In this document: positions 687 through 32,783 of the stretch, in pieces
Layout of the letters: every line of letters begins with the position of its first letter
Position numbering within the stretch: position 1 is the stretch's first letter
Origin: a virus
Strand: one strand, 5' to 3'
IMG/VR virus record: IMGVR_UViG_3300009690_000003
Length of the DNA: 35,898 bases
Translations under genes and position numbers: made by a program
The notes under the pieces: model-generated
What the model was told of the DNA's origin: nothing
Database searches by the model: none
Seen by the model: only the letters and a program-made list of their open reading frames with translations

Positions 687-712
687 CCGTGAGGCCTCCG
701 GTTGGTGGATTG

Positions 713-748
713 CAGTTCCGATAATAAAAAATCCAGTTCCGATAATTA
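713..748. promoter_or_regulatory. Two direct copies of operator-like 15-mer CAGTTCCGATAAT(A/T)A upstream of int
   Basis: Copies at 713-727 and 734-748. The same 15-mer recurs in inverted form at 3520-3534, upstream of the primase gene. Confidence 0.6.
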
Positions 749-873
749 TTATCAGACTTTTTTTTATCACCTGCCTTTGGTATCCGTGTGCACGGAGGTT
801 ATGGGGAATGTGTGGTTTTTGCAAACCTGTGTCCCCACGGATGGGTGGATGTGGTCATCCGTGGGGACTGAGG

Positions 874-920
874 TCGGGGCGAGCGGATTTGAACCGCTGG
901 CCTCACGGACCCGAACCGTT
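874..920 (-). other. tRNA-Pro(CGG) 3' fragment (anticodon arm to discriminator), putative attP core
   Basis: The minus strand reads AACGG-TTCGGGT-CCGTG-AGGCC-AGCGG-TTCAAAT-CCGCT-CGCCCCG-A. It has U33, anticodon CGG, G37, a perfect T arm, G72 and A73. There is no D arm, no 5' acceptor strand and no CCA. Confidence 0.7.
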
Positions 921-1008
921 ATTCCCGTAAATCAAACCGGCGTCCTCATGGGCAGGTGATTGCCAGTATCCGTGAGGTTGCCGGTATTCCCATCCGTGCG
1001 CACGCCGG

Positions 1009-1380
1009 TCAGTCATCCGTGGGTACGGAGGTTGTGTGATTATTCTCAAATGCAATCGCCAGGATCAGCCTGATCTGGTCCTGGCTGAGCAGATGCCACA
1101 CCGCCGTGAGTTGTTTCAACTGGGGGTCAGGCCGGGCCAGGCCCAGCACATCGTAGATCTCAGGGCCGAGTTTGGCGGCGATCTTTTCCAGAGATGCTTT
1201 ATCAGGCTTTTTCCGACGTTCATTAATGTAATGACTTAGCTGAACTTGATCAAGACCAAGGTATTCTGCAAATTCACGCTGCGTTGTAACTTCACCCCTT
1301 TCACGCATCCAGTTAATAAATTGAAGTTCAAGCCAACTGGCGAATTCTGATTTGCTATTCATGTTAACAATTCTAAGCAT
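1009..1380 (-). CDS. CI-like XRE-family HTH repressor
   Basis: The segment TQREFAEYLGLDQVQLSHYINERRKKP is a helix-turn-helix. The gene is divergent from a second HTH gene across an AT-rich promoter region. The start codon (1380 or 1362) is uncertain. Confidence 0.8.
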   Translation of the reverse strand: MLRIVNMNSKSEFASWLELQFINWMRERGEVTTQREFAEYLGLDQVQLSHYINERRKKPDKASLEKIAAKLGPEIYDVLGLARPDPQLKQLTAVWHLLSQDQIRLILAIAFENNHTTSVPTDD

Positions 1381-1404
1381 TCCTGATTAATAAGTAAATG
1401 GCTA

Positions 1405-1459
1405 TTGACTTTTTAGAATTTATTTGATAATATATATACAGACTGTTATTCTCAATCAA
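1405..1459. promoter_or_regulatory. Back-to-back overlapping promoters of the CI/Cro-like switch
   Basis: Rightward promoter: TTGACT 1405-1410, 17-nt spacer, TAATAT 1428-1433. Leftward promoter: TTGATT (complement of 1454-1459), 17-nt spacer, TATATA (1431-1436). The two -10 elements overlap. Confidence 0.55.
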
Positions 1460-1462
1460 GTG

Positions 1463-1723
1463 ATGATAATGATCAATAAAATTGTTACAAAATACCGCAA
1501 AGAGATCGATCTGACCCAGGAGGACTTCGCTGAGAGCCTCTGTGTTAAATTACCTGGCGTCAGTTTGACCAAACAGGCGATCTCAAACTGGGAGCGGGGC
1601 GCTCAGACGCCCGATTATATGTTCCTGATTGCGGTCCTGATGGCCTACAACGACTGGCGGTACGACTTTGCGCTCGAGTGCCTGGCAGCGCTGCGCCCTT
1701 CGGTGTGGGCATCTACAGAGTAG
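1463..1723 (+). CDS. Cro-like XRE-family HTH protein
   Basis: LTQEDFAESLCV...SLTKQAISNWERGAQTP is an HTH_3-type motif. The ATG at 1463 is in frame with the longer track ORF. Confidence 0.75.
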   Translation: MIMINKIVTKYRKEIDLTQEDFAESLCVKLPGVSLTKQAISNWERGAQTPDYMFLIAVLMAYNDWRYDFALECLAALRPSVWASTE

Positions 1724-1761
1724 CACATTTGATCTGGTATTAGGGATAAAAGGAGACTGCC

Positions 1762-2769
1762 ATGGAGAACTTATTGAATGTGAAAGAGGCGCAGCGGCTG
1801 GATGTGCGTGAGGCCACCACCAATGACAAGTGGGCCAACGCCTTTGGGTTGTGGCTGTCGAGCAAGGCGGGCAACACCCGCCGGGCGTATGAGCTGGCCT
1901 GGGAGATGCTGATGGACTTCACGGGCAAGATGCCCTGGGAGATGGGTTCGGCGGACATCGAGGCCTGGGCGGCCGAGCTGCGCAAGGGATATTCTGAGAG
2001 CACGGTCCAGCAGCGGTTGGCTGCCGTTTCCAGTTTCTTTTCCTATGCCAAGCAGCAGTACATGGATTTTGTGGACGGGGTCGAGATGCCCCTGCACCAC
2101 TACAACCCGGCCAAGGCAGTCCAGCGGCCCAAGGTCCTGGCCTATGGCAAGGCCCATCCGCTGAGTGTTGACTCGGTCAAGGCCCTGCTGGATGCGATCG
2201 ACCGGACCACAGCCCAGGGCAAGCGGGATTATGCGCTGATCCTGGCTTTTGTGCTCACCGGCCGCCGCAACAGCGAGGTGATCAACCTGCGCTGGGGTGA
2301 CCTGGAGCAGCGTGACGGGCGGATCTGGTACCGGTGGCAGGGCAAGGGGTGTACGAGTGGTCGTTACGAGTTGCCTGCTGCTGTTTTCTTGGCCATAACC
2401 GATTGGTTGTCTTCGTCTTCACGGCTGGATGATATGCACGCTGAGGATTACATCTTTACCGCACTGAGCGATCATGCCAGGCACTTCCCGGGTGTGGAGC
2501 ACGACCCTGGGCGTCCGCTCAGCAGCCGTTATGTGCGGGACCTGGTCAAAAAGTACGCTCGGATGGCCGGGCTGGATCCCGACCTGGTGCGGGTGCACGA
2601 CCTGCGTCACACAGCAGCGATGCTGCGGGCTGAGGCGGGCGATGATGTGCGGCTGATCAGCAGCTTCCTGGGTCACAGCGACCTGCGGACCACATCCCGG
2701 TACCTGTTTCAGGTGGGCGGACGCAAGGATGAGAGCTGGGGTAAGGTCTGCGAGATGCTATCGATTTGA
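1762..2769 (+). CDS. Second tyrosine recombinase/integrase (335 aa)
   Basis: Catalytic signature present: TGRRNSEVINLRWGDL (Arg), HDLRHTAAM (HxxR), LGHSDLRTTSRY (His, Tyr). AAGGAG RBS 6 nt upstream of the ATG. Confidence 0.9.
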   Translation: MENLLNVKEAQRLDVREATTNDKWANAFGLWLSSKAGNTRRAYELAWEMLMDFTGKMPWEMGSADIEAWAAELRKGYSESTVQQRLAAVSSFFSYAKQQYMDFVDGVEMPLHHYNPAKAVQRPKVLAYGKAHPLSVDSVKALLDAIDRTTAQGKRDYALILAFVLTGRRNSEVINLRWGDLEQRDGRIWYRWQGKGCTSGRYELPAAVFLAITDWLSSSSRLDDMHAEDYIFTALSDHARHFPGVEHDPGRPLSSRYVRDLVKKYARMAGLDPDLVRVHDLRHTAAMLRAEAGDDVRLISSFLGHSDLRTTSRYLFQVGGRKDESWGKVCEMLSI

Positions 2770-2860
2770 TGTTTGATCCCGGGTGGGCTGGGGGAGCTCA
2801 CCCGGTTTGTTATGCCGGTTGTTTCGGCCTGGATTAGCAAAGGATTTATTGATGTTTGAT
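2766..2860. repeat. 12-nt direct repeat TTGATGTTTGAT (2766-2777, 2849-2860) flanking a 71-nt hairpin-containing segment
   Basis: The repeats are exact. The first overlaps the recombinase stop codon and the second overlaps the ATG of the next gene. An internal 7-bp stem CCGGGTG/CACCCGG is present. Confidence 0.6.
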
Positions 2861-3181
2861 GGTGTTGTGGCTGTGTTATTTACCTGTGTCCTGATGGCCT
2901 TGCTGCATTATCTCCCATGGCGGGGGTTGTTCCGTCGGGATCTGCCGGTGCTGGCCAGGTATGTACTCGGTGTGCTGGCGCTGGTGGGCCCGCTGTCGGT
3001 GCTGTGGGTCGTCCAGGAGGATTGGAGCAACCTGGTCCTGGTGTGGTCTGTGGTGGTCTGCGGTGGGCTGACAGTGATCCTGTTGCACGTCCTGGACGCG
3101 TCCATTGAAGCCCGTGGCCGTGCGGATATTGCAGAAGAAGAAGGGAGGCAGCTGCGTGGCCAGGCCAACAAGAGAAGTTGA
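2852..3181 (+). CDS. Small integral membrane protein
   Basis: About three hydrophobic segments (VVAVLFTCVLMALLHYL, VLGVLALVGPLSVLWVV, LVLVWSVVVCGGLTVILLHVL). AAGGA RBS before the ATG at 2852. Confidence 0.6.
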   Translation: MFDGVVAVLFTCVLMALLHYLPWRGLFRRDLPVLARYVLGVLALVGPLSVLWVVQEDWSNLVLVWSVVVCGGLTVILLHVLDASIEARGRADIAEEEGRQLRGQANKRS

Positions 3182-6469: not shown

Positions 6470-6823
6470 ATGAAGTTTTTTTATGCCCTGGAGACCGAAA
6501 GAAAATTTGTTTTGTCATGTGCGACGATGGGAAATACAAAACAAAATATTCTACACAACCCTGGAAAATATACACAACCTACACTCCTACACAGACGAGG
6601 CAATTTACATAGGCCTGGATCATATCAAAATGGCTTATTTAATCAATTTTATATGTATATATGTTATTTATTGAAGGTTTCTAAGCGATACCGAGAATTT
6701 TTTGCCATGGCGGTTTTAGGGGTGATTCTGATGCTTTTGGTGAATGATGTATGTGAAGGTTTTTTGGGTAAAGAAACTACACTCGAAAAGGGTGAATATA
6801 CACTCCTACACGGGTGCAGGTGA
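6470..6823 (+). CDS. Questionable ORF inside the AT-rich iteron region
   Basis: A good AAGGAG RBS lies 8 nt before the ATG, but the composition is odd and the ORF overlaps the repeated TACACAACC / ACACTCCTACAC motifs. The region may be non-coding origin DNA. Confidence 0.3.
   Translation: MKFFYALETERKFVLSCATMGNTKQNILHNPGKYTQPTLLHRRGNLHRPGSYQNGLFNQFYMYICYLLKVSKRYREFFAMAVLGVILMLLVNDVCEGFLGKETTLEKGEYTLLHGCR
6552..6811. repeat. Iteron-like repeats in an AT-rich region directly downstream of the primase gene (putative ori)
   Basis: TACACAACC at 6552-6560 and 6571-6579. ACACTCCTACAC at 6581-6592 and 6800-6811, both preceded by ATATACAC-type sequence. This is the lowest-GC stretch of the replication module. 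Confidence 0.5.
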
Positions 6824-6859
6824 AAGTTTAAAGTTGAAAGGAAAGGATTGGAGGAAAAC

Positions 6860-8073: not shown

Positions 8074-8567
8074 TGGCAGGAGATAACGGTGTGGTTGTGC
8101 TGGAGGATACGTTGAACCACGAGTGCTGGCGGCGGGTGCACTTTTTGAGCGGTGATGAGCGTGCTTTTCAGAAGGCATGGGATCAACGGCTGGTTTCGAT
8201 CCCATGGGAGAGCGCGGATGCGGTGATCACCCAGCGATATACCGAGGCCGGGATCCAGCACGGGGTGATCCTGTGGCCGCTGCGGGGGCAGATCGTGAAG
8301 TATGAAAACCTTGTAAATATTATCAAAGACCAATGCGTGGTGATTTGGGTGCTTTTTAAAAGGGATGACCGTGTGAGCACTGCGGTGAAGACCTGCGCCT
8401 GGTATTACTATGCGTTTTATGATGTTTGGCCGGACACGGCCTGGATCGGGGCGGACATGGCGGTGCATGATGGGAAGACGGTGGATGTAGACGGGCATGT
8501 GATCACCCTGGTTCTGGCAGATTGGATGGCGAAGATGGGTGTGGGTTTAGGCATAGCTGATAGCTGA
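8073..8567 (+). CDS. Hypothetical protein
   Basis: TAATG stop/start overlap with the upstream gene. The C-terminus runs into the heptamer repeat (GIADS). Confidence 0.55.
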   Translation: MAGDNGVVVLEDTLNHECWRRVHFLSGDERAFQKAWDQRLVSIPWESADAVITQRYTEAGIQHGVILWPLRGQIVKYENLVNIIKDQCVVIWVLFKRDDRVSTAVKTCAWYYYAFYDVWPDTAWIGADMAVHDGKTVDVDGHVITLVLADWMAKMGVGLGIADS

Positions 8568-8576
8568 AAGCTGAAA
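8556..8576. repeat. GCTGAWA heptamer tandem array (3 units)
   Basis: GCTGATA GCTGAAA GCTGAAA spans the stop codon of 8073-8567. Confidence 0.8.
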
Positions 8577-8585
8577 GGATAGAAA

Positions 8586-10203: not shown

Positions 10204-10490
10204 TGGATGAAATGCGGGTATGGACGTGTGAAAACGGGCATGTGCTGGGGCTGGTGCGGCGGAACGGCCGTGGGATCACGCAGCTGTTGGTGTACCGGCA
10301 AGCAGTGGATATGGCGGCGGAGGAGCCGCAGGCGCCGGAGGTGATGAGCATTGCCGAGGGGACGGTGGTGGACATCCGCTGCAGCGTGTGTGATGCGATG
10401 CGGACGTGGGTGACCGGTGAAGCTGCGATGGTGCGGTTATTGGAGAGCAGACCGGGGATCGGGCATACACCCCCCTGTAGTCCCCCCTAA
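10200..10490 (+). CDS. Hypothetical zinc-ribbon-like protein
   Basis: WTCENGH...RCSVCD (C/H ... CxxC). The stop codon TAA is the loop of the hairpin repeat at 10480-10499. Confidence 0.55.
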   Translation: MMDEMRVWTCENGHVLGLVRRNGRGITQLLVYRQAVDMAAEEPQAPEVMSIAEGTVVDIRCSVCDAMRTWVTGEAAMVRLLESRPGIGHTPPCSPP

Positions 10491-10499
10491 AGGGGGGAC
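10471..10499. repeat. C-rich hairpin repeat (CCTCCCC-TAAA-GGGGAGG family), copy 1
   Basis: GTCCCCCC TAAA GGGGGGAC preceded by a CCCCC half-repeat. Confidence 0.8.
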
Positions 10500-10514
10500 G
10501 GGGTGAAGCTGAGC

Positions 10515-10720: not shown

Positions 10721-11053
10721 ATGAACGAGCAAATGATTAACAATGAAGGTCTTGAAATGGGGGAGGGAAGCGGTTATAATGGAACGGATGTTCTATTTAG
10801 CGAGGGAGGGACGATGACGAAGATGACCGCAACGTATCCGGAGGAGTATGTGCAGGAGATGGCGATGGAGGCGTTTGATGCGGTAATGGTTCGGCTGAAA
10901 TCACATGGCGATGCCGAGGTGCGGATGTTGGCTCAGGCGGCGGATGCGTATTTTTTGCTGTGGCAGCTGGCGGGCGAGGAGACGGCGATTGCGACACAGA
11001 CGATCGGGGAGTATTTACCGATGCTGATCAGGGTGATAGCGGATAGGGAGTAG
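10721..11053 (+). CDS. Hypothetical acidic protein
   Basis: AAAGGAG RBS. 110-aa helical acidic protein. Confidence 0.6.
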   Translation: MNEQMINNEGLEMGEGSGYNGTDVLFSEGGTMTKMTATYPEEYVQEMAMEAFDAVMVRLKSHGDAEVRMLAQAADAYFLLWQLAGEETAIATQTIGEYLPMLIRVIADRE

Positions 11054-11117
11054 CTGATAGGTGGTGGCTGGCTCGAATAGGCTGTCGATTGACAGGGAGA
11101 CTGGGGTGATGTAAGTT
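11052..11117 (+). promoter_or_regulatory. Promoter module A (duplicate of 12165-12230)
   Basis: Aligns without gaps to 12165-12230, with the first 42 nt 38/42 identical. TTGACA 11089-11094, 17-nt spacer, TAAGTT 11112-11117. Confidence 0.55.
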
Positions 11118-12164: not shown

Positions 12165-12230
12165 AGCTGGTAGGGGGTGGCTGGTTCGAATGGGCTGTCG
12201 ATTGACGCGGGTGTGGGGATGTTTTAAACT
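12165..12230 (+). promoter_or_regulatory. Promoter module B (putative late promoter)
   Basis: Copy of 11052-11117. TTGACG 12202-12207, 17-nt spacer, TAAACT 12225-12230. It precedes the holin-terminase-structural gene string. Confidence 0.55.
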
Positions 12231-12759: not shown

Positions 12760-13206
12760 ATGCCAGTCTGGCTGCAATTGGTGGGGATGTTGTTGACCGG
12801 CAGTTTGCTGACTGCGGCGTTTAACGCGTGGGCGAACCGCCAGAAATACAATGCGGAGGTCTCAAAGATTTTTGCGGAGACGGCAGGCCAGCTGGTGGAG
12901 CAATCCAACGAGCAGATGGATGATCTTCGGAAACAATTTGGTGAATTGAAGCGTGAGAATGGCGGCCTGGTATGTGAAATCGGCCGGTTGGAGGGGAAGA
13001 TCGACCGCCTGGAGAGGGAGCTCACGCAGAAGAACATAGAGGCGAACACTATGCAAGACGAAATCCGAAATCTGCGCAGGGAGCTGGCGGAAAAAGACCG
13101 CGAGATCGAGGCACTGGAGAGTGAAAACACCGAGCTGAAGGTGCGGGTGAGCGAGCTGGAGCGGCGATTAGAGGAACTGGTTAAAGACCGTGATCAGGAA
13201 AAATGA
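12760..13206 (+). CDS. Membrane-anchored coiled-coil protein
   Basis: N-terminal TM helix followed by long heptad-like E/R/L-rich sequence. May be lysis-associated. Confidence 0.55.
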   Translation: MPVWLQLVGMLLTGSLLTAAFNAWANRQKYNAEVSKIFAETAGQLVEQSNEQMDDLRKQFGELKRENGGLVCEIGRLEGKIDRLERELTQKNIEANTMQDEIRNLRRELAEKDREIEALESENTELKVRVSELERRLEELVKDRDQEK

Positions 13207-13945
13207 TCCAAAGGATTTGGAGCAGCTGGCGCTGGGGTTAGACCTGCCCGAGCCGGAGGAAGAGGCGGGTTTAAGCCGCGATGAGGTGATGCGGATGAGT
13301 ATGGCGGCGATGCAGGCGCTGGAGGCTGGGCAGGAGACTGCTTCGCAAGCTCGCAGTGACAATAATGCTTGGTTTTCTGACTATTTGCGGCTGAAGGAGC
13401 TGGGCTTTTCGTGGCGGGTGGCGGCGTATATTGCGTGGGAAGCCAGCCCGAGGGGGTCCAGGTGGCCTGGAACCGTGGCGGAGCTGGCCACGGAGGTGTT
13501 GGGATTGAAGTCGCCGCGGGTGATTTATACCTGGCGGAAGAAGAACCCGGCGATCGATGAGATCATCTCGGTGATGCAAACGGAGCCGCTGTATGAGCAT
13601 CGGCGAGATGTGATCGAGGCGTTGATTGCTGTGGCGAGCGATCCGGATTATAAGGGGCATGCAGACCGGAAGCTGTTTTTTGAGATGATCGGGGATTATG
13701 TGCCCCGTTCGCAGGTGGACATGGGGATGAAGAAGGTCTCGGATGATGATTTGAGCGAGCTGAGTGACGAAGAGCTGCGCAGGTTGACGGAGCGGTTGAA
13801 GGATAAGGAAGCTGAAAGCTCAAAGCTGAAAGCTGATAGTGGGCCGACATCTCCTGATGTCGGCACTGCGCCGATCCCCGAAAAGGGGACTTTGAACCTT
13901 GATGGTTCTCGGCTTGAGACGGAGGACGGGCAAGAGGATGCCTGA
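13190..13945 (+). CDS. terS: Putative terminase small subunit (HTH), with repeat-derived inserts
   Basis: Lies immediately upstream of TerL. HTH-like TVAELATEVLGLKSPRVIYTWRKK. The GTG start is tentative. The C-terminal tail is encoded by heptamer and hairpin repeats. Confidence 0.5.
   Translation: MIRKNDPKDLEQLALGLDLPEPEEEAGLSRDEVMRMSMAAMQALEAGQETASQARSDNNAWFSDYLRLKELGFSWRVAAYIAWEASPRGSRWPGTVAELATEVLGLKSPRVIYTWRKKNPAIDEIISVMQTEPLYEHRRDVIEALIAVASDPDYKGHADRKLFFEMIGDYVPRSQVDMGMKKVSDDDLSELSDEELRRLTERLKDKEAESSKLKADSGPTSPDVGTAPIPEKGTLNLDGSRLETEDGQEDA
13334..13362. repeat. Degenerate copy of the GAGATTGCTTCG...CTCGCAATGACA repeat, in frame in TerS
   Basis: GAGACTGCTTCGCAAGCTCGCAGTGACAA, translated as ETASQARSDN. 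Confidence 0.65.
13811..13838. repeat. GCTGAWA heptamer array (4 units) in frame in TerS
   Basis: GCTGAAA GCTCAAA GCTGAAA GCTGATA, translated as AESSKLKADS. Confidence 0.85.
13841..13872. repeat. Covarying hairpin repeat (GGCC-stem-TCTCCTGA-stem-GCACTGCGC family), in frame in TerS
   Basis: GGGCCGACATCTCCTGATGTCGGCACTGCGCCG. Same architecture as 17113-17144, with three compensatory stem changes. Confidence 0.75.
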
Positions 13946-13981
13946 GATGTTGACGGCAATTGATCCACAGGTGGCCCAGGC

Positions 13982-14041
13982 GGGCCAGCGCCTTATGGTG
14001 CTTGGCACTGTGCTGGTGCGGCTTGAGGCCGCCCAGCTTGA
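13982..14041. repeat. 60-nt repeat, copy 1 (copy 2 at 24593-24652)
   Basis: GGGCCAGCGCCTTATGGTGCTTGGCACTGTGCTGGTGCGGCTTGAGGCCGCCCAGCTTGA fills the TerS-TerL spacer. 54/60 identical to copy 2. Confidence 0.85.
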
Positions 14042-14064
14042 GTCTGATTTACAAGGCGGTAATC

Positions 14065-15759
14065 GTGGCTGAGTTATTACAGGTCATAGATCCTGCTATT
14101 GCTCAGGCTGAGCTGGCAAAGCGGACGCTGGCCAGGCGGCACCTGGTGGATTTTTCGGAGTATGTGAGCCCATGGTATCACGGGTACCGGCATCACCGGC
14201 TGGTGGGGCTGTACCTGGAGCAAGTGGCTGATTATATCCGCAGCCGAGGGAAGGAGGGCATCGGCCGATTGATGATCACAATGCCGCCCCGGCACGGAAA
14301 GACGGAGCAGTGCTCACGGCAGTTCCCAGCATGGTTATTGGGACTGATGCCGGATACCCGGATCATTTTGACTTCGTATAACGGCGACCGGGCGAATGCG
14401 AACAGCCGCGGCGCACGTGATTTGGTGATGGACCCACGCTATGGGGCTGTGTTTGGGATGAAATCATCGGTGGATGCGCCGGTGGACCTGTCTTCTGACA
14501 GCCGGTCGGTGACGGCGTGGGACCTGGCGAACCCGCACAGAGGCGGTGTGGTGGCGGCCGGTGTGGGCGGCGGGATCACGGGTACGGGTGCGCATTTGAT
14601 GGTGGTGGATGACCCCTTGCGCGGACGTGAAGAGGCAGAGAGCCGGGCCCAGCGTGACCGCGTATGGGACTGGTGGACTTCTACGGCTTATACCCGTTTG
14701 GAGGATGGCGGCGCGGTGGTGCTGATTATGACCCGCTGGCATCCGGATGATTTGGCCGGTCGGTTGCTGCAGCAGATGGCGAGCGACCCGATGGCGGATC
14801 AGTGGCAGGTGGTGAATTTACCGGCGATATGGCCAGGTTCTCATGATCCCGCTCCGCAGGCTTCGGGGACAAGCCCTGGCACTTCGCTGGAGCGGGTTGA
14901 GCCCGCCCAGCTTCGGCAGGGGGACGGGGAACCGATACCCTCACGGGCACAGGCGACGGGTGACAGGGGAGATTGCTTCGCTTCGCTCGCAATGACAGAA
15001 GAAGAAGATCCCTGGCCGGTGCATTTCAGGGATATGCTGTTGAACGGGGTGTGGGTGCAAAAAGAGGATCCGTTGGGACGGAAGCCGGGCGAGGCGTTAT
15101 GGCCGGAGAAGTATTCTGAGGAGGATTTACTGCGGATCCAGACGAATGTGGGTGCGCATGATTGGATTTCGCTGTATCAGCAGAGCCCGATCCAGCGTGA
15201 GGGGGCGATGTTCAAGCCGGAGTGGGTGGACGTTGTTGACCGGATCCCAGGCAAGGTGATCGCCCGAGTGCGGTACTGGGATAAGGCCGGGACGGAGGGG
15301 GGCGGCGACTATTCAGCTGGCGTGTTGATGGCGATGACGAATGATAAGCATTTTTACATCGAGCATGTGAAGCGGGAGCAGCTGAGTTTTTATGTGCGCA
15401 ACCAAACGATGGCCAAGATGATCGATGCTGATGGGGAACGGGAAGGGCCGGTGGTGAAGACTTACCAGGAGGTGGAGCCCGGGGCAGCCGGTAAGGAAGC
15501 GGCAGCCAACACGGTGAAAGAGATGCAGGGCCGTGGGATTATCGCTGACCCAGTGGGCAATAAGAGTAAAGACGTGCGTGCGATGGCGCTTTCGACAGCC
15601 TGCGAGGCCGGTCTGGTGCACCTGGTGCGTGCGGAATGGAATCAAAAATTTATGGAAGAGCTGATGATGTTCCCGAAGGGCGTGCACGACGACCAGGTGG
15701 ATGCGGCTGCGGGTGCATATAACAAACTGGCCCGAGGCGGAAGGAGCGGCGTATTTTAA
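14065..15759 (+). CDS. terL: Terminase large subunit
   Basis: Walker A-like MPPRHGKT, Walker B-like HLMVVDDP, MTRWHPDDL. C-terminal nuclease region with the conserved pattern GVHDDQVDA. The GTG at 14065 was chosen because the upstream in-frame stretch is repeat DNA. Confidence 0.85.
   Translation: MAELLQVIDPAIAQAELAKRTLARRHLVDFSEYVSPWYHGYRHHRLVGLYLEQVADYIRSRGKEGIGRLMITMPPRHGKTEQCSRQFPAWLLGLMPDTRIILTSYNGDRANANSRGARDLVMDPRYGAVFGMKSSVDAPVDLSSDSRSVTAWDLANPHRGGVVAAGVGGGITGTGAHLMVVDDPLRGREEAESRAQRDRVWDWWTSTAYTRLEDGGAVVLIMTRWHPDDLAGRLLQQMASDPMADQWQVVNLPAIWPGSHDPAPQASGTSPGTSLERVEPAQLRQGDGEPIPSRAQATGDRGDCFASLAMTEEEDPWPVHFRDMLLNGVWVQKEDPLGRKPGEALWPEKYSEEDLLRIQTNVGAHDWISLYQQSPIQREGAMFKPEWVDVVDRIPGKVIARVRYWDKAGTEGGGDYSAGVLMAMTNDKHFYIEHVKREQLSFYVRNQTMAKMIDADGEREGPVVKTYQEVEPGAAGKEAAANTVKEMQGRGIIADPVGNKSKDVRAMALSTACEAGLVHLVRAEWNQKFMEELMMFPKGVHDDQVDAAAGAYNKLARGGRSGVF
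14830..15000. repeat. Composite in-frame insertion of four repeat modules inside TerL
   Basis: TGGCACTTCGCTGGAGCGGGTTGAGCCCGCCCAGCTT (14877-13, as in 24612-24650). ACCCTCACGGGCACAGGCGAC (14936-14957, as in 26686-26706). GAGATTGCTTCGCTTCGCTCGCAATGACA (14969-14997, identical to 26644-26672). Confidence 0.8.
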
Positions 15760-17927
15760 TGGCACGACAGAAGCGCAGCACTTTTTTGGAGACGGTGACG
15801 CGATGGGTCAAGACGATCAGCCCGCGCAAGTATGCGATCACATCGATCAGCTCAAACGGGGTGGAAGTGACCCGTTTGGTGGACTTCAACACGTATTGCG
15901 AAGAGGGTTATAAACGCAACGCGGTGGTGTATTCGGCGGTGCGTGAGATCGCGAGGACGGCACCGAGCGCACGGCTGCAGGTGCATAAGCGGCTGGGGCA
16001 GGGGCAGACGGAAATCCAGGAAGATAACCCGATCCAGGACCTGCTGGACTTTCCGAACCCATGGCAGAGCCATTATGACTTTTTGGAGACGCTGATCACG
16101 TATTTGAACCTGGACGGGAACGCGTACATCATCCGAGAACGAGAAGGTGTTAATACAAAAGCGATGTGGCTGCCGAGGCCGGATTTGATGTCGGCCGTGG
16201 TGGACGGGAAAAAGTCGATCTTTGAGGCAAACGCTCTCTTGGGTTATGCCTATATCACGCAGACGGGCGAAAAGCTGTATTTTTTGCCGGAGGACGTGAT
16301 CCACATCAAGTACCCGAACCCGAATGATCCGCACGGCGGGATGGGAAGAGGGCATCCGCCATTGATGGCTGCGGCCGCTGATGCGGATAATGACAATAAT
16401 CAGACCACGTTTATCAAGCAGTTTTTCAAAAACGGCGCGGTGCCATCTGGCATTATTAAATCGAAGAATATTTTGGATGATGGCGAGGTGAGGCGGATCC
16501 AGAGCCGGATCGGAGAGCAGTATTCTGGTGAGGCTAACTGGCACAAGGTGATGGTGCTGGATGCGGATGCGGAGTACCAGCAGACGGGATTGAACCTGGA
16601 CCAGATGGTATTTCCGGACCTACGGGCGATTTCTGAGACAAGGATCTGTGCAGCTTTCAAGGTACCGCCGGTGCTGATTGGCGTGAAGGCCGGGTTGGAT
16701 GCGGCCACATATTCAAACTATGCGCTGGCCAGGCGGGCACTGTGGGAGGACAACATCATCCCGACAACGACGAAGCTGGCCGAAGCGCTGACCCGGGCAT
16801 TATCGGATGAGATGGATGAAGACGTGATCATCGTGGCGGATTACAGCAACGTGGTGGCGCTGCAGGATGACCGCACGAACCGATTTGCCAGGGCAAACCA
16901 GGCGGTGATTGGCGGATGGATCACGGTTAATGAGGCGAGGCGTGAGGTGGGTTTGGGCCCGCTGCCGATGGGTGTGGGCGATGTGCTGTACCGGCCGCTG
17001 ATGAGCGAGGCGGTGGATGATGGGGCGGGAGATGCGAGTAGGAAGATGACCCCTCTCCTAACCTCTCCCCTAAAGGAGAGAGGAATAAAAAAAACAGATG
17101 GTTCTTCAGTTTGGCCAGCGTCTCCTGACGCTGGCACTTCGCTGATGCAGCTTGATGCTGCTTCAGCTTGGAAGGCGTTTGATCGGGTGGCGAGGAAATG
17201 GGAGGGGCAGTTCAAGCGGACTGCGGCCAGGCTGTTCGAGGAGGAAGAGCGCGAGATCGAGGGGCGGATCAACGGGATGAAGGGCAAGTCGATCAAGGCG
17301 ATTGATTTTGAAGCGATTTTGACGGCGATTGCGACCTTCATGGCGGTTGAATCGGTGAAGAAATGGCAGACGGAATTTTTACCGCTGATGATGGGACTGA
17401 TGCAAGAGCAGCTGAGCGCATGGATTGGCTCGGTGGGGATCGACTGGGATATTGAAAACCCGGCGGTGGCCGATTTTATCCGGAGCCACTCGTTTGCATT
17501 TGCGCAGCGGATCAGCGATACGACGATGGAAGATGTGAAGCGGCTGATTTTGGCCGCACAGGGTGAGGGCTGGTCCACGGTGCGGCTGATGGATGAGCTG
17601 AAGGCGGTGTATGGCGGCTGGTCTGACCTGCGGGCGGAGATGATTGCGCGGAGCGAGACGATCCGGAGTTCGAACGCAGGACTGGTGGAGGGGTATAAGC
17701 AGAACGGGATCACGCAGATCGAGTGGTATGCGGCATTGGATGAACGTCTGTGCCCGTTTTGCAATGAGATGCACGGGAAGCAGATTGCGATTGGCGAGGC
17801 GTGGTTTGAGGGCGGGAGCGAGATGTATGTGGGCCAGGAACGGCTGGTGATGGATTATGGCGATGTGTACTGGCCGCCGCTGCACCCGAACTGCCGGTGT
17901 GTGATGCAGCCGGTGATTGGTGATTAG
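15759..17927 (+). CDS. Portal protein fused to a MuF / SPP1 gp7-like head morphogenesis domain
   Basis: The N-terminal ~430 aa are portal-like. The C-terminal part (AADFIRSHSFAFAQRIS...ARSETIRSSNAG...LDERLCPFC...HPNCRC) is the MuF minor head protein signature. TAATG overlap with TerL. Confidence 0.8.
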   Translation: MARQKRSTFLETVTRWVKTISPRKYAITSISSNGVEVTRLVDFNTYCEEGYKRNAVVYSAVREIARTAPSARLQVHKRLGQGQTEIQEDNPIQDLLDFPNPWQSHYDFLETLITYLNLDGNAYIIREREGVNTKAMWLPRPDLMSAVVDGKKSIFEANALLGYAYITQTGEKLYFLPEDVIHIKYPNPNDPHGGMGRGHPPLMAAAADADNDNNQTTFIKQFFKNGAVPSGIIKSKNILDDGEVRRIQSRIGEQYSGEANWHKVMVLDADAEYQQTGLNLDQMVFPDLRAISETRICAAFKVPPVLIGVKAGLDAATYSNYALARRALWEDNIIPTTTKLAEALTRALSDEMDEDVIIVADYSNVVALQDDRTNRFARANQAVIGGWITVNEARREVGLGPLPMGVGDVLYRPLMSEAVDDGAGDASRKMTPLLTSPLKERGIKKTDGSSVWPASPDAGTSLMQLDAASAWKAFDRVARKWEGQFKRTAARLFEEEEREIEGRINGMKGKSIKAIDFEAILTAIATFMAVESVKKWQTEFLPLMMGLMQEQLSAWIGSVGIDWDIENPAVADFIRSHSFAFAQRISDTTMEDVKRLILAAQGEGWSTVRLMDELKAVYGGWSDLRAEMIARSETIRSSNAGLVEGYKQNGITQIEWYAALDERLCPFCNEMHGKQIAIGEAWFEGGSEMYVGQERLVMDYGDVYWPPLHPNCRCVMQPVIGD
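17051..17144. repeat. In-frame repeat insertion in the portal-MuF linker (C-rich hairpin copy 2 plus covarying hairpin)
   Basis: CCCTCTCCTAACCTCTCCCCTAAAGGAGAGAGG is read as PLLTSPLKERG, with the TAA out of frame. GGCCAGCGTCTCCTGACGCTGGCACTTCGCTG lies at 17113-17144. Confidence 0.8.
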
Positions 17928-17964: not shown

Positions 17965-18681
17965 ATGGATAACAAACAGATGACGACAAAAATATTTCCG
18001 AGCTTTACAAAGAGCATGGATGCTGAGACGGGGATCGTGGAGGCGTATGTGAGCCTGATGGGGATCAAAGACCTGGACAGCCCACCGGATGTGATCCAGA
18101 TGGGGGCGTTTGCGAAGACGATCCAGGAGCGCGGCCCGCAGGGAGCACGTAAGATCCGGGTTTTGCACCAACACAAGTGGGACCGGGTTATCGGGACCCC
18201 GCTGACGCTGGTGGAGCACACCCGCGATATGCTGCCACCTGAGCTGCTGGCGCTGTATCCGGAGGCCACGGGCGGGCTTTTTGCCCGGACGCAGTTTGTG
18301 ATGGATGTGCAGCAGGGCAGAGAAACGTATGCGCTGTATAAGGCCGGTGCGATGGATGAATGGTCGATCGGGTTTGATACGCTGCAGTTTGAGTACCTGA
18401 AGAGCGAGGAAGAGGATACTTATCGGATTTTGAAGGAGCTGAAGCTGTGGGAGTATTCGCCGGTGACGTGGGGGATGAACCCGGCGACGGTGACGACGGC
18501 GGTTAAAGCGGATAGCTCAAAGCTGATAGCTGATAGTAAAGAAGAAGATGATGATGAAACTAACTCGGATGGTGGTGCCGAGCCGCATGAAGATGCACTC
18601 ACACCAACCAGGGAGATGGCGATGAAACTTAAACAATTAGAAATTGATCTGGCGATGGCCAGACTACGGAGGTTGAAATGA
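17965..18681 (+). CDS. HK97-family prohead protease
   Basis: Sits between portal and capsid. Matches the S78-like pattern (VLHQHKWDRVIG, EWSIGF, LWEYSPVTWGMNP). GGAGGG RBS. Confidence 0.8.
   Translation: MDNKQMTTKIFPSFTKSMDAETGIVEAYVSLMGIKDLDSPPDVIQMGAFAKTIQERGPQGARKIRVLHQHKWDRVIGTPLTLVEHTRDMLPPELLALYPEATGGLFARTQFVMDVQQGRETYALYKAGAMDEWSIGFDTLQFEYLKSEEEDTYRILKELKLWEYSPVTWGMNPATVTTAVKADSSKLIADSKEEDDDETNSDGGAEPHEDALTPTREMAMKLKQLEIDLAMARLRRLK
18515..18535. repeat. GCTGAWA heptamer array (3 units) in frame in the protease C-terminal tail
   Basis: GCTCAAA GCTGATA GCTGATA, translated as SSKLIADS. Confidence 0.85.
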
Positions 18682-19957: not shown

Positions 19958-19990
19958 CCCCCTTCCTACCCTCCCCTTTTAGGGGGAGGG
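19958..19990. repeat. C-rich hairpin repeat, copy 3
   Basis: CCCCCTTCCTACCCTCCCC TTTTA GGGGGAGGG, starting 2 nt after the capsid TAA. Confidence 0.8.
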
Positions 19991-20021
19991 GGGAATGAAT
20001 TAGAAAAAGTGAGGTTTTGAA

Positions 20022-20462
20022 ATGGCAACAATATTTACTGAAAAAGTGGCGGTTCTGGGTGCTATTGACCCCGGTGCCCATGGGACAGGCACGCTGGGGA
20101 CTGGTTATGTCGATATGAAGCAGTTTGATCAATTGGCGTTTGTTGTGCAGGTGGGCGTATTTGCAAGCGGCGCCAAGGTTGATTTTAAGCTGCAGGAAGC
20201 GACGAGTGCCGCCGGGGCAGGTGTGCAGGACCTGAGCGGTAAGGCGATCACCCAACTGACGGCCGCAGGAACAGACGATGATAAGCAGGTGATCGTGGTG
20301 GTGAAGGCGTCCGAGCTGAGTGATGGCTATCGCTTTGTACGCGGTCTGATGACGATCAGTGTGGATGCAGTTGATTCATGCGTGCTGGTGCTGGGTGCAG
20401 ACCCACGCTATATGCCCGCCAGCAATTTCGATGTGTCAACGGTTGATGAGATCGTCTATTAG
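20022..20462 (+). CDS. Putative head decoration / auxiliary capsid protein
   Basis: Assigned by position next to the capsid gene. Beta-rich 146-aa protein. Confidence 0.4.
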   Translation: MATIFTEKVAVLGAIDPGAHGTGTLGTGYVDMKQFDQLAFVVQVGVFASGAKVDFKLQEATSAAGAGVQDLSGKAITQLTAAGTDDDKQVIVVVKASELSDGYRFVRGLMTISVDAVDSCVLVLGADPRYMPASNFDVSTVDEIVY

Positions 20463-20487
20463 GCCGATCTTTTAGAATCTTTATGAA

Positions 20488-23556: not shown

Positions 23557-23587
23557 CCCCACCCTACCCTCCCCCTAAAGGGGGAGG
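23557..23587. repeat. C-rich hairpin repeat, copy 4
   Basis: CCCCACCCTACCCTCCCCC TAAA GGGGGAGG, starting directly after the TAA stop. Confidence 0.8.
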
Positions 23588-23597
23588 CGGAGGAAGT

Positions 23598-24092
23598 ATG
23601 GACGTTTCGATCGAGATTAAGGGCTTGCAGGAACTGATGGACCGCTTCGGGCAGTTTGACGAGATCGCGGTGGATGAGTTCCGGGCGGCGATGGGCATTT
23701 CGGTGGAGACAGTGGCCAAGCTGGCTCGGGAGAAGGCGCCGGTGAACCTGGGCAGGCTGCGGGCGAGCATCACGGGCAAGGTGCAGGGCGGCGGGGTGGT
23801 GACCCAGGTGGAAGGCGTGGTGGGCGCGTATGTGCCCTATGCCCGGGTGATGGAAGAGGGTGCGGACCCCCACTGGCCGAATATGGCCAACCTGCATTTC
23901 TGGGTGGTGCGCAAGCTGGGGTTGAAGGGGGTGGAGGCCGAGCGGGCTACGTTTTTGATTGCAAGGGCGATCTCACGGCGCGGGTTGAAGGGACATCATT
24001 ACATGCGGGATGGGCTGAGTGAGGCGGAGCCGAAGATCAAGGCTGAGTTTGAGCGGGCGGTTGAGAGGATTGTGGAGAAGCTGACGGAGTAA
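23598..24092 (+). CDS. HK97 gp10-like head-tail joining protein
   Basis: MDVSIEIKGLQELMDRF...AKLAREKAPVNLGRLRASI matches the gp10-family pattern. Confidence 0.7.
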   Translation: MDVSIEIKGLQELMDRFGQFDEIAVDEFRAAMGISVETVAKLAREKAPVNLGRLRASITGKVQGGGVVTQVEGVVGAYVPYARVMEEGADPHWPNMANLHFWVVRKLGLKGVEAERATFLIARAISRRGLKGHHYMRDGLSEAEPKIKAEFERAVERIVEKLTE

Positions 24093-24094
24093 GA

Positions 24095-24129
24095 CCCCCC
24101 TCCCGACCTCCCCCCTAAAGAGGGGGAGG
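24095..24129. repeat. C-rich hairpin repeat, copy 5
   Basis: CCCCCCTCCCGACCTCCCCCC TAAAGA GGGGGAGG, starting 2 nt after the TAA stop. Confidence 0.8.
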
Positions 24130-24145
24130 AGAAAAAAGAGGCATT

Positions 24146-24583
24146 ATGACGATTGAAAACTGGAAGGATGAATTGACCGGGGTGCTGAGTGAGATCAGCG
24201 GAATCACGGAGGTGCGGGCTTATGATGACCTGCCCGGGCAGATCGTGGCCAGCCCGACGCTGATCTGGTTCCCGGTAAGCGGATCGCAGTCCTACGGCAT
24301 GGGCAGCCCGGCGGTGGCTTTTCACCGGGTGCAGTTGAGCCTGTTCGTCAGCGTGGCGCTGCTGCCGGAGGGGGTTGGCCAGGCGGTGCCGCTGATCGCT
24401 GCGGTGCGGAACAAGCTGGCCCAGCACATCACGCTGGGCAGGACGGTGGCGCAGATGATCCCTGATCCGAACGGGAACTTCTATGAAGGCCCGGCAACGA
24501 TGATGTACGGCGATCGGACGTACACGGGTGTGAATTTTTATTTGGAGGTGAAGGAAGTGGAAAGAATAGCCGTTAGTGCATAG
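24146..24583 (+). CDS. Putative tail terminator / tail completion protein
   Basis: Assigned by position between the gp10-like gene and the tail tube gene. 145 aa. Confidence 0.4.
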   Translation: MTIENWKDELTGVLSEISGITEVRAYDDLPGQIVASPTLIWFPVSGSQSYGMGSPAVAFHRVQLSLFVSVALLPEGVGQAVPLIAAVRNKLAQHITLGRTVAQMIPDPNGNFYEGPATMMYGDRTYTGVNFYLEVKEVERIAVSA

Positions 24584-24592
24584 AGCATGGTT

Positions 24593-24652
24593 GGGCCAGC
24601 GCCTCATGGCGCTTGGCACTGCGCTGGTGCGGGTTGAGCCCGCCCAGCTTGA
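24593..24652. repeat. 60-nt repeat, copy 2
   Basis: GGGCCAGCGCCTCATGGCGCTTGGCACTGCGCTGGTGCGGGTTGAGCCCGCCCAGCTTGA. Intergenic. Confidence 0.85.
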
Positions 24653-24666
24653 AATTTGGTGAAACT

Positions 24667-24984
24667 ATGACAGATAAATTTAACAGGAAGGCTGTGGTGA
24701 TGCTGAAATATTTAGGAAATGGGTTTTTGAAGAAGGTTCCGGCCAGGGATTTGACCAAAGACGAGGTTGAGGGGCTGGGGTTGGATCCGGATGTGCTGGT
24801 GGGGAGCGGGCTGTATGCATTAGCTGAAAGCTCATCCCACTCGCTTCGCTCGGGGACGATGAAGCTGAAAGCTGATAGCGATAAGATTGACCTCGCTCGC
24901 CTTAAAGTAGAGGTGGAAACCGATTTAGGAGAATTGGAGGTTTTATTGGAGGATGATCAGGTTGAACCTTCGCAGGATGAATGA
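24667..24984 (+). CDS. Hypothetical structural-module protein carrying repeat-derived inserts
   Basis: The ATG at 24667 lies after the repeat. The middle of the protein (LAESSSHSLRSGTMKLKADSDK) is encoded by heptamer and GCTTCGCTCG repeat modules. Confidence 0.5.
   Translation: MTDKFNRKAVVMLKYLGNGFLKKVPARDLTKDEVEGLGLDPDVLVGSGLYALAESSSHSLRSGTMKLKADSDKIDLARLKVEVETDLGELEVLLEDDQVEPSQDE
24823..24884. repeat. Two GCTGAWA heptamer arrays flanking a CTCGCTTCGCTCGGGG module, in frame
   Basis: GCTGAAA GCTCATC ... GCTGAAA GCTGATA GCGATAA. Confidence 0.8.
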
Positions 24985-25018
24985 GATTGCTTCGACCCCT
25001 ACGTGGTCTCGCAATGAC
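24983..25018. repeat. GAGATTGCTTCG...CTCGCAATGAC repeat, variant with a different centre
   Basis: GAGATTGCTTCGACCCCTACGTGGTCTCGCAATGAC overlaps the stop of 24667-24984. Confidence 0.75.
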
Positions 25019-25049
25019 TAAACAATTGATTGATTAAGGAGATTTTACA

Positions 25050-26072
25050 ATGAGTGATTATGGTATCAAAACATTTCGACAGCTCCAGATGAACCGGGAA
25101 TCGGCGATCGGTACGCCGGGGGCCAGCTGGTTCAACTGGCGCGGGCTGGGCCTGCTGGACGATCAGCGGGTTTCGGTGTTCCCGGAGGAGGATATTGGCA
25201 TTTTTGGCGGCACCGACCGGCAGTATTTCCCGCAATTGCGCGGTGAGCTGAACATGCCCAGCCAACCGGCCACCTTTGAGCAGCTGGGCCACATTCTGGA
25301 TGCAGGCATTGCCCGGGCAACCCCCGCGGATGACGGGGCAGGGAGCGGCAAGATCCGCACCTACACCATGCCGATTGCGGCGGATGATGCGGTGGATGCC
25401 GATGACCTGCAGACCTACCACATCAAGAACGGCGACAATGCGGCGGTGGATAAGACCGGCGGGGCGTTCGTGAAGAGCTTTGCGCTGGAAGGCGCCCGCA
25501 ACGAAGCCTGGATGCTGACCGTAAACTGGGAAACCCAGGAAGTGGCCAAAGATGGGGACGGGTTTGTGGTTGCCACCGTGCCGGATGTGGAAGAGATGAT
25601 GTTCAACCTTTCAAAGATCTACATCGATGATGAGGACGGGGCCTTTGGCGCCAACCAGGCGGAAGTGGTGCTGACCAATGCCACACTGAACGTGGAAACC
25701 GGCTGGCAGGCCCTGTTCACCGCGGATGGGTCGCTGGCCTACAGCAACATCAAGCAGCGCAAGCCGGAGATCATGCTGAATCTGACGCTGGAGATGACGG
25801 CCTCCGTGGCCGCTGCCGAGCGCGAGAACTGGCGCGCCAGCGTTCCCCGGCTGATCCGCCTGGTGTGTGAGGGCAGCGAGCTGACCACCGAGGGCACCAA
25901 TTATGCCAACAAGACTCTGATCGTTGACGCAGCCGCGAAGTGGGATAAGTTTGACCCCCTGGGCGACGATGACGGCGATGACATCATCACGGGCACCCTG
26001 CGCTGCCGCTACAACGCCGAGAGCGCCAGCTTCTTTGAGATGGTGCTGGTGAACGAGGTGGCAGCCTTATGA
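25050..26072 (+). CDS. Putative major tail (tube) protein
   Basis: Lies immediately upstream of the frameshifted chaperone pair. AAGGAG RBS. 340 aa. Confidence 0.55.
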   Translation: MSDYGIKTFRQLQMNRESAIGTPGASWFNWRGLGLLDDQRVSVFPEEDIGIFGGTDRQYFPQLRGELNMPSQPATFEQLGHILDAGIARATPADDGAGSGKIRTYTMPIAADDAVDADDLQTYHIKNGDNAAVDKTGGAFVKSFALEGARNEAWMLTVNWETQEVAKDGDGFVVATVPDVEEMMFNLSKIYIDDEDGAFGANQAEVVLTNATLNVETGWQALFTADGSLAYSNIKQRKPEIMLNLTLEMTASVAAAERENWRASVPRLIRLVCEGSELTTEGTNYANKTLIVDAAAKWDKFDPLGDDDGDDIITGTLRCRYNAESASFFEMVLVNEVAAL

Positions 26073-26643: not shown

Positions 26644-26712
26644 GAGATTGCTTCGCTTCGCTCGCAATGACAAAGGTGCTCGCAATACCCTTACGGGCAC
26701 AGGTGACAAAAT
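26644..26712. repeat. Repeat cluster in the chaperone-tape measure spacer
   Basis: GAGATTGCTTCGCTTCGCTCGCAATGACA (identical to 14969-14997), then a partial GTGCTCGCAATA, then ACCCTTACGGGCACAGGTGAC (as in 14936-14957). Confidence 0.85.
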
Positions 26713-32716: not shown

Positions 32717-32750
32717 CCCCTCTCCCATCCTCTCCCCTAAAGGGGAGAGG
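32717..32750. repeat. C-rich hairpin repeat, copy 6
   Basis: CCCCTCTCCCATCCTCTCCCC TAAA GGGGAGAGG, starting directly after the lysin TAA. Confidence 0.85.
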
Positions 32751-32783
32751 AGCTTTCGCCGCTTACAACATGTTTGGAAACTT

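Follow-up and report, generated by a model that had tools for sequence, protein, structure and literature searches.

Five short hairpins with a common layout lie scattered over the 35,898-nucleotide viral record IMGVR_UViG_3300009690_000003 from IMG/VR (the window, by which we mean the whole stretch of DNA analysed), and they raise the question of what kind of element they are and why their fold is kept. The five hairpins are copies of one two-hairpin DNA repeat, here named R1. We consider it probable, at roughly 60%, that R1 is a dispersed palindromic repeat, small and non-autonomous, of the kind represented by repetitive extragenic palindromes (REPs), miniature transposable elements with inverted repeats (MITEs), and Rickettsia palindromic elements (RPEs), belonging to a narrow Chloroflexota lineage and having colonised its temperate phages, because its stems vary and stay paired around fixed loops, its copies turn over at multiple sites, and it occurs in host chromosomes and in two unrelated groups of phages. 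The unit is 57–60 nt long and consists of two different stem-loops in the layout G-[GCCnnnnn]-CUCNUG-[nnnnnGGC]-ACUGC-[RYGR-n-nnnnn]-UUGAK-[nnnnn-YCRY]-UUG, in which hairpin 1 has 8 bp and hairpin 2 has 10 bp, mostly with a bulged base on its 5′ arm. It is therefore larger than the hairpin first reported: a preliminary description, made from the sequence alone, had given a single hairpin and a 3′ partial at 14877–14913, whereas the latter is a full unit spanning 14832–14913, and the two members taken for half copies (copy 1 and the copy in the TerL gene) are in fact full units with nested insertions. The conserved parts are the loops CUCNUG and UUGAK, the linker GGCACUGCRC, and the UUG tail; in a column consensus of 60 copies, conservation in loops, linker, and tail is 80–100%, and the stems are variable. 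Hairpin 1 comes in 20-nt and 21-nt versions, which shift the reading register. Linkage among unpaired columns does no more than separate two subfamilies, GGCACUGC...CUUG and GGCAUACG...CUA, and no loop-loop (kissing) covariation was detected.

Related IMG/VR contigs were retrieved via the portal protein and hold many further R1 copies. Twenty copies were aligned by sequence alone with MAFFT, and a covariance model made from this alignment matched the window strongly at five places and no more, each on the plus strand (E values of 4e-20 to 8e-11; scores of 80.5, 78.8, 70.9, 46.4, and 45.5 bits), and these are the five members of the preliminary description, all located where it had placed them. 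The next-best matches are palindromic echoes on the minus strand. All five copies fold as predicted, with z-scores of −2.0, −3.7, −3.8, −6.0, and −7.0, the weakest of which belongs to the copy that carries a nested insert. At gathering thresholds, Rfam 15, including its Chloroflexi-1 and phage motifs, returned only a tRNA, and at E ≤ 10 it returned only chance matches below 16 bits, so that none of its families fits R1.

In the 20-copy alignment, which was fitted to no structure, 96.7% of stem cells were paired, double changes were present at 13 of the 18 pairs, and the covariation score of 0.605 (0.232 when shuffled) was reached by 0 of 500 shuffles; when partner columns were slid as a control, pairing was only 23–46%. 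Sixty distinct copies from ~20 loci in related phages, in an alignment fitted to the covariance model, were 97.2% paired, with double changes at all 18 pairs and a covariation score of 0.681 against 0.202 for shuffled columns. An independent set of 32 chromosomal copies was 94% paired, with double changes at 15 of 18 pairs. The claim that selection acts on the hairpin as such, first argued from two copies, thus holds in phage copies, in chromosomal copies, and in orthologous copies within ORFs, and in alignments of 20 and then 60 copies the compensatory excess lies far above the shuffles. The three compensated stem differences originally noted between 13841–13872 and 17113–17144 are real, with the counts of pair types reversed: from CCGACA/TGTCGG (copy 1) to CCAGCG/CGCTGG (copy 2), two pairs change from A:T to G:C and one from G:C to A:T. 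Among orthologous copies in ORFs, whose flanks are nearly the same, that in TerL reads GCGGG/CCCGC in the window and GCGGC/GCCGC in the relative L025, within flanks ~90% identical, and hairpin 2 of the portal linker reads GCAGC/GCTGC in the window and GCGGG/CCCGC in L078, a difference of two double changes. Because the L078 version equals hairpin 2 of another window copy, some compensatory changes may, on a reading of the sequences, have come about when another copy supplied a complete hairpin, rather than by stepwise mutation. The excess of G.U over A.C in stems (30 vs. 18) is too small to tell which strand is the functional one. Selection on the folded hairpin itself is strongly supported, and the combination of variable paired stems with fixed loops, linker, and tail is the pattern expected of a protein that recognises a folded single strand.

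Whether copies are polymorphic among related phages, a point raised by the preliminary description, is answered by gains, losses, replacements, a deletion, and a tandem pair set against a relic. The relative L002 (73% identity) has no R1 copies in its TerS-like gene, TerL, or portal gene. The window TerL carries an insertion of 49 aa in the linker that joins its ATPase and nuclease domains; four relatives lack it, and a fifth has a different insert there; the module nested in the R1 copy of TerL is confined to the window, and the orthologous L025 copy is canonical and lacks it. In the slot separating the portal gene from the protease gene, L003 and L005 have R1, L004 has another hairpin (...TTGCTTCGTCGC...CTCGCAATGACA) between near-identical flanks, and the window and L006 have yet other hairpins. 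In the protease linker of L005, the central 45 nt of R1, retained in L003, have been deleted in frame. The portal linker of L078 contains two tandem units with a 57-nt period, of which the window has the second unit and 17 nt of the first, and 57-nt tandem arrays of R1 also occur in relatives. Copy number is 5 in the window and 11 and 4 in two other complete genomes of ~36 kb, and it reaches 7–12 in phage fragments of 12–16 kb, a density of up to ~0.8 copies/kb.

The distribution of R1 is narrow. An exact-pattern scan of public collections gave matches in 14 viral contigs, in 8 stretches of metagenome, and in 2 contigs from genomes, the last two belonging to metagenome-assembled genomes (MAGs) of Chloroflexota. 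Among the nearest relatives of one such assembly, G003 (MAG100), 15 of the 41 genomes searched carry R1 in their chromosomes, with 1–21 copies detected per R1-bearing genome as a lower bound, on megabase-size contigs and on both strands; a run with stricter filters found R1 in 0 of 200 other genomes of the same class. Relative to genes, the chromosomal copies are sense in 6 cases, antisense in 11, between convergent genes in 8, and between divergent genes in 4, and they show no bias with local GC skew (11 against 13). This random orientation argues against a dedicated 5′ untranslated region or regulatory RNA. Chromosomal R1 is nested in an outer stem, GAGATTGC...[R1]...TTGTCGCAATGACAGGATTTTT, that forms a branched, terminator-like structure followed by a T-run, and the outer shell of these composites has CGTC or TGTC before GCAATGAC. 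TTG precedes the unit in 55–67% of phage copies and stands at its end in 78–92%; the chromosomal copies do not show this tendency. Phages of an unrelated type from the same host lineage (L020 and L036), which have a portal gene and a protease–capsid fusion, carry R1 as well, and in both a copy lies antisense between the portal and protease–capsid genes (L020 2259–2329 and L036 7606–7676). One of these antisense copies is of the GGCACUGC subfamily and the other of the GGCAUACG subfamily: the slot has been kept and its content has diverged.

Of the three options left by the preliminary description, namely a transposition intermediate, a protein-binding site, or an RNA element, the first fits the data best, in the form of a palindromic repeat that moves or recombines. 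The fold would then be retained since the hairpins are needed for the copying of R1, and the most economical route would be the processing of single-stranded DNA by a host enzyme, such as a Y1/HUH transposase, together with conversion between copies. Selection in phages would then spare only harmless placements, such as the slots between stop codon and Shine–Dalgarno sequence, the positions before a promoter module, and variable linkers and C termini, and R1 transcribed within the late operon would act at most as a passive intercistronic RNA hairpin. Matches to PF01797 (Y1_Tnp) were found in 15 of 16 host-lineage genomes, both with and without R1, and in none of those 16 genomes was a Y1 transposase gene flanked on both sides by R1. 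The only adjacency of a transposase to R1 that was seen is in L072, where an IS200-type Y1 transposase gene (2363–2770, equivalent to G213:C5:305862–306269; 129 bits) ends 14 nt before a weak (30 bits) antisense R1 composite; this adjacency may be due to chance or to insertion of an insertion sequence (IS) beside a hairpin.

Placement of the phage copies, most of which are intergenic, bears on a different reading. Approximately one third of phage copies end 11–21 nt upstream of a start codon, their tail continuing into GGAGG (CTTG+GAGG), and the 5′ edge often overlaps the preceding stop codon (TAG-GCC or TGA-GCC), such that R1 fits between-gene slots running from stop codon to Shine–Dalgarno sequence. 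A second class of copies lies immediately 5′ of a promoter-like module, GGCTGTCGATTGACAGG, and a third is in frame within TerS-like, TerL, portal-MuF, and protease genes, in linkers and C-terminal regions. The preliminary description had put three window copies inside ORFs, which is correct for the last 35 codons of ORF 13190–13945, for TerL, and for the portal-MuF linker; its name TerS for the first of these is positional only. The between-gene slots would suit a cis-acting RNA of the late operon, composed of a stop codon, two hairpins, and a Shine–Dalgarno sequence, that would serve mRNA ends, protection, termination, or presentation of the ribosome site, perhaps through a host protein reading the loops, with mobility being secondary. 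Besides the start-proximal third and the frequent overlap with stop codons, this account draws on the sense orientation of all copies in the lineage of the window phage (57 of 57, in seven records), on the near-invariant loops and linker, and on the pairing preserved in each copy despite large sequence divergence; slots without R1 hold another stable hairpin, and L006 and L010, in which flanking proteins are 45–65% identical to those of the window, keep the slots on both sides of the homolog of ORF 20022–20462. However, copies inside ORFs keep the full structure with no apparent regulatory role, copies are freely lost or replaced between close relatives, and the lack of a U-tract sets phage copies apart from canonical terminators. 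Nor does the account sit easily with the random orientation of chromosomal copies, often between convergent genes, or with the antisense copies between portal and capsid genes of the second phage type. We regard a primary RNA function as less likely than mobility, but an RNA role in the late operon is a serious alternative.

Several observations nevertheless weigh against R1 being a mobile palindromic repeat. The coding-strand orientation of all 57 copies and the start-proximal third with a tail into GGAGG would both be compatible with a function as RNA. Nothing that could be tied to R1 was found in the way of a transposase, terminal inverted repeats, or a target-site duplication, and Y1_Tnp genes occur in host genomes with R1 and in those lacking it, with the single adjacency described above. 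Copies within one phage have widely different stems and are still 97% paired, a combination that points to long-term upkeep at each site rather than to recent bursts of transposition. Finally, the best pairs of relatives show replacement or deletion and not precise insertion: a joined-flank search found no precise filled/empty pair at high identity, only replacements, deletions, and distant orthologs. A more elaborate model, which we consider speculative and unlikely, would make R1 the folded recognition module of a previously undescribed structure-specific single-strand copying system in Chloroflexota. The double hairpin would be cargo, carried in a CGTC/TGTC-type shell or free of it, and would have been domesticated by phages as a stop–hairpin–Shine–Dalgarno cassette, its loops binding a host factor that sets late-gene expression and its stop-free frame writing linker peptides into terminase, portal, and protease.

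The boundaries of homology between genomes suggest another explanation, in which R1 would be a recombination cassette at module boundaries, its 60-nt homologies promoting exchange between co-infecting phages in the manner of the promoter early stem-loop (PeSL) elements of T4-type phages, which provide a precedent (PMC2839356). Homology between the window and the complete relative G005 breaks at 13800–14063, 17038–17169, 18507–18576, 24079–24200, and 24563–25056, and these breaks coincide with repeat modules; copy 3 of the window lies between two diverged TerL 5′ ends, the upstream one being 85% identical to a TerL start of L002 type, and the combination of R1 with the promoter module recurs in several relatives. 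The homology blocks on either side of the breaks remain collinear, however, which makes the breaks hypervariable fillers and not exchanged modules. Exchange of this kind also needs sequence identity, yet the stems differ strongly between copies, and it leaves the maintained pairing unexplained. We think it quite unlikely that recombination of this sort accounts for R1.

Sequence features of the conserved core and of the translated copies could instead point to a site in double-stranded DNA (an operator, for instance, or a sigma-54-like TGGCAC promoter) or to a motif selected at the protein level. The core TGGCAC does resemble the −24 box of sigma-54 promoters when read as sequence, and the peptide ..SPDxGT(S/A)L.R(V/L)E.AQL recurs in copies within ORFs. 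Stems that covary and are not conserved are unlike a site read by a double-stranded DNA-binding protein, and a peptide motif does not agree with copies that are mostly intergenic, with a register that shifts with the version of hairpin 1, or with the use of two frames: GGC-ACU is the frame of 10 of the 11 scored copies within ORFs and is the stop-free frame of the consensus, and the 11th copy, read in a different frame, no longer has the TGA of loop 2. Both forms of this explanation are very improbable.

Candidate signals were also assessed directly. A sigma-54 promoter was rejected: the spacing from GG to GC is 12 nt and not 10 in five of five window copies, and positions −13/−12 are GT or AT. 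A promoter scan predicted no sigma-70 promoter at any copy. For phage copies, no terminator-like site was found at any R1, the tail being YUUGR with no U-tract. A peptide repeat was likewise rejected, given the intergenic majority, the register shift, and the use of a second frame.

R1 shares properties with several described families of repeats. Like REPs and the mosaic elements composed of them (BIMEs), it is a short GC-rich hairpin repeat that is mostly intergenic, often located after coding sequences or between convergent genes, whose copies join into larger arrangements, and that has some intragenic copies (Di Nocera et al. 2013, PMC3733652), and Y1 transposases are encoded in genomes of its host lineage. 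Unlike REPs, which are single palindromes of 20–40 bp in high copy number (PMC3733652), it is a fixed pair of distinct hairpins of 57–60 nt and is without a GTAG/CGTC tag of its own, its ends in 60 copies being (T)TG-GCC on the 5′ side and GC-TTG on the 3′ side. Its copy number is low in hosts (at least 1–21 detected per genome) and it is abundant in phages, and no REP-associated tyrosine transposase (RAYT) flanked by copies was found. With RPEs it shares a palindromic structure, in-frame presence in unrelated genes, translation, location in variable linkers and C termini, and one consensus frame that is free of stops (PMC10969869). RPEs differ in being ~100–150 bp long, in encoding a conserved peptide, and in belonging to obligate intracellular Rickettsia (PMC10969869), whereas R1 is ~60 nt and mostly intergenic; it is found in Chloroflexota and their phages, and here in genes for packaging and head assembly.

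MITEs shared by hosts and viruses are known and are rare in viruses (Nadal-Molero et al. 2024, PMC11602168). R1 is similar to them in being non-autonomous, in being common to a host lineage and its phages and so able to indicate the host, and in being cotranscribed with its neighbours (PMC11602168). The differences are that the ends of R1, GCCAGCG... and ...CCCAGCTTG, do not form a reverse-complementary pair, its inverted repeats being internal to each hairpin, that no target-site duplication was seen, and that it is far shorter than typical MITEs. Given the rarity of MITEs in viruses described in that study, the density of R1 in phage fragments is unusual. Correia elements resemble MITEs shared by hosts and viruses. 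R1 thus fails the defining features of tagged REPs (size and tag), of MITEs (terminal inverted repeats), and of RPEs (size, peptide, and host).

Among repeats specific to phages, the start-associated sequences (SAS) and extended SAS (ESAS) of Cluster K mycobacteriophages are the nearest parallel for start-proximal copies of R1, since these too are repeats of a phage lineage found in one orientation by start codons and overlapping the ribosome-binding site (PMC3203893). SAS is a 13-bp asymmetric motif, placed 3–7 bp from the start, whose function is unknown (PMC3203893), and the inverted repeats of ESAS show no compensatory changes and have been read as DNA-binding sites (PMC3203893), whereas R1 covaries and is also found within ORFs and in host chromosomes. 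PeSLs resemble R1 as small repeated stem-loop cassettes at block boundaries (PMC2839356), and in relatives R1 forms a composite with a promoter module. PeSLs combine a promoter with a terminator stem-loop, lie in hyperplastic regions, and have been demonstrated to mediate recombination (PMC2839356), whereas R1 is without a promoter or U-tract and its flanks are collinear. The put antiterminator RNA of HK022 shares with R1 only a two-hairpin shape of comparable size; put lies downstream of a promoter, binds RNA polymerase, and suppresses termination, whereas R1 is also found within ORFs, upstream of promoter modules, and antisense.

Palindromic repeats of small size are reportedly infrequent in viruses (PMC11602168). 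R1 is a repeat with strong covariation that is present at 4–12 copies per phage record and in frame in terminase, portal, and protease genes, and it illustrates how the linkers of core virion and packaging proteins gain sequence. It provides a defined substrate with which to find the enzyme that copies such elements, an enzyme that is unknown for most REP-like families, and by linking phages of an uncultured group to one narrow lineage of Chloroflexota it can be used as a marker for host prediction. Annotation should take into account that the C-terminal tails and linkers of R1-bearing ORFs are derived from repeats.

The individual copies in the window, all on the plus strand, differ in their state of preservation. 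Copy 1 (13837–13922; 46–51 bits; fold z-score of −6.0) is a full unit in which 13843–13850 pairs with 13857–13864 around the loop CTCCTG to form hairpin 1, and an extra mini-hairpin, CCCCGAAAAGGGG, lies at 13876–13888 within hairpin 2. By its reading frame, copy 1 is translated as the final ~35 codons of the TerS-like ORF 13190–13945. Copy 3 (13978–14048; 70.9 bits) is canonical, with a bulged hairpin 1 of at least 8 bp, and lies between an older TerL start relic (13943–13983) and the current TerL start, GTG 14065. The 5′ end of TerL is duplicated around this copy, at 13943–13983 and 14070–14108; the upstream version is ~85% identical to the TerL start of L002 and opens an ORF of 41–44 codons (ATG 13938 or 13947 to TGA 14072) whose stop overlaps GTG 14065. 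The duplication looks like an insertion scar or a recombination joint.

Copy 5 (14832–14913; 45.5–52.6 bits) is located in TerL, where a linker joins the ATPase domain to the nuclease domain. In its hairpin 1, the end of the loop and the greater part of the 3′ arm have given way to a nested module of ~27 nt at ~14845–14875 (two alignments differ slightly); hairpin 2 is intact. This module is TCCCGCTCCGCAGGCTTCGGGGACAAGCC, and a similar one recurs in related phages, for example at ~6030–6078 of L007; such elements therefore insert into each other. Copy 2 (17108–17178; 80.5 bits) is canonical and in frame in the portal/MuF linker of ORF 15759–17927. It is preceded by a relic, GATGGTTCTTCAGTTTG (17097–17113), which the alignment with L078 identifies as the 3′ end of a second, upstream unit, the remainder of which has been overwritten by a C-rich hairpin module at 17041–17092. 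Copy 4 (24589–24659; 78.8 bits) is intergenic, is 92% identical to copy 3, and ends 18 nt upstream of ATG 24667, the start of a tail-region gene.

A stub, TAGGCCGATCT, at 20460–20470 is a probable remnant of a lost R1 unit, to judge from its sequence and from the alignment with relatives; it begins on the stop codon of ORF 20022–20462, and the same slot is occupied by a full R1 in L006 and L010. The promoter-like module GGCTGTCGATTGACAGG, with a 17-nt spacer and TAAnnT, is duplicated in the window at 11052–11114 and 12165–12227, and a full R1 lies directly 5′ of this module in L002, L006, L007, L017, and G005. The window's GGTGGTGGCTGGCTCGAATAGG before the module is probably a 3′ remnant of an R1 unit.

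The window is a complete phage genome of ~35.8 kb in a circularly permuted assembly, bases 1–123 recurring at 35776–35898. Its plus strand is G-rich and carries most genes and the entire structural region. The phage is temperate, with an early region that encodes an integrase (1762–2769), a CI-like repressor (1009–1380, minus strand), a Cro-like regulator, and a primase. The head module comprises the TerS-like ORF and genes for TerL, a fused portal-MuF protein, a prohead protease, and an HK97-type capsid; the portal-MuF ORF 15759–17927 has Pfam domains at residues 56–397 and 602–716, and ORF 13190–13945 has no PHROGs or Pfam match, its TerS label being given by position only. No RNA polymerase or transposase was detected among the ~30 window ORFs scanned, the remaining ORFs being outside the scan. 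No close annotated relative was found in the phage database, in which the single match is one of 136 nt in TerL to virus Rctr41k.

Other repeat modules neighbour R1. A second hairpin family, GAGATTGC...GCAATGACA, is present at 14969–14997 and 26644–26672 (identical 29-mers) and at 24986–25018, one copy being in frame in TerL (..DCFASLAMT..) and two being intergenic. Its shell is the one that encloses R1 in host chromosomes, with a T-run after it, and the CGTC or TGTC before GCAATGAC suggests that this shell may belong to the CGTC-tagged class of REPs. A family of C-rich/G-rich hairpins, CCTCTCCCC-TAAA-GGAGAGAGG, occurs at 10470–10503, 17041–17092, 19959–19992, 23557–23590, 24086–24137, and 32708–32759. 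These hairpins are placed 3′ of stop codons and have a Shine–Dalgarno-like 3′ arm, and the copy at 17041–17092 is read in frame as part of the portal linker, adjoining R1 copy 2 on its 5′ side. Tandem repeats of the AGCTGAWAGCTGA type are found at 13809–13840, 18506–18537, 8554–8585, 6817–6848, and 24862–24893; one of them abuts R1 copy 1, and another is in the protease linker, a site of R1 in relatives. Elsewhere, in host chromosomes and other phages, R1 is often continued on its 3′ side by tandem repeats of 6–7 nt (GTGAATG, TAGCTGA, TTAGGTA). In L010, the portal-MuF ORF (276–3107; 944 aa) has an insertion of ~220 aa in place of the short linker; this insertion is bordered by EIASLQDA.QSQARND repeats derived from hairpin modules and contains two H-x-T-L motifs (HITLAL and HITLAY) reminiscent of 2H phosphoesterases.

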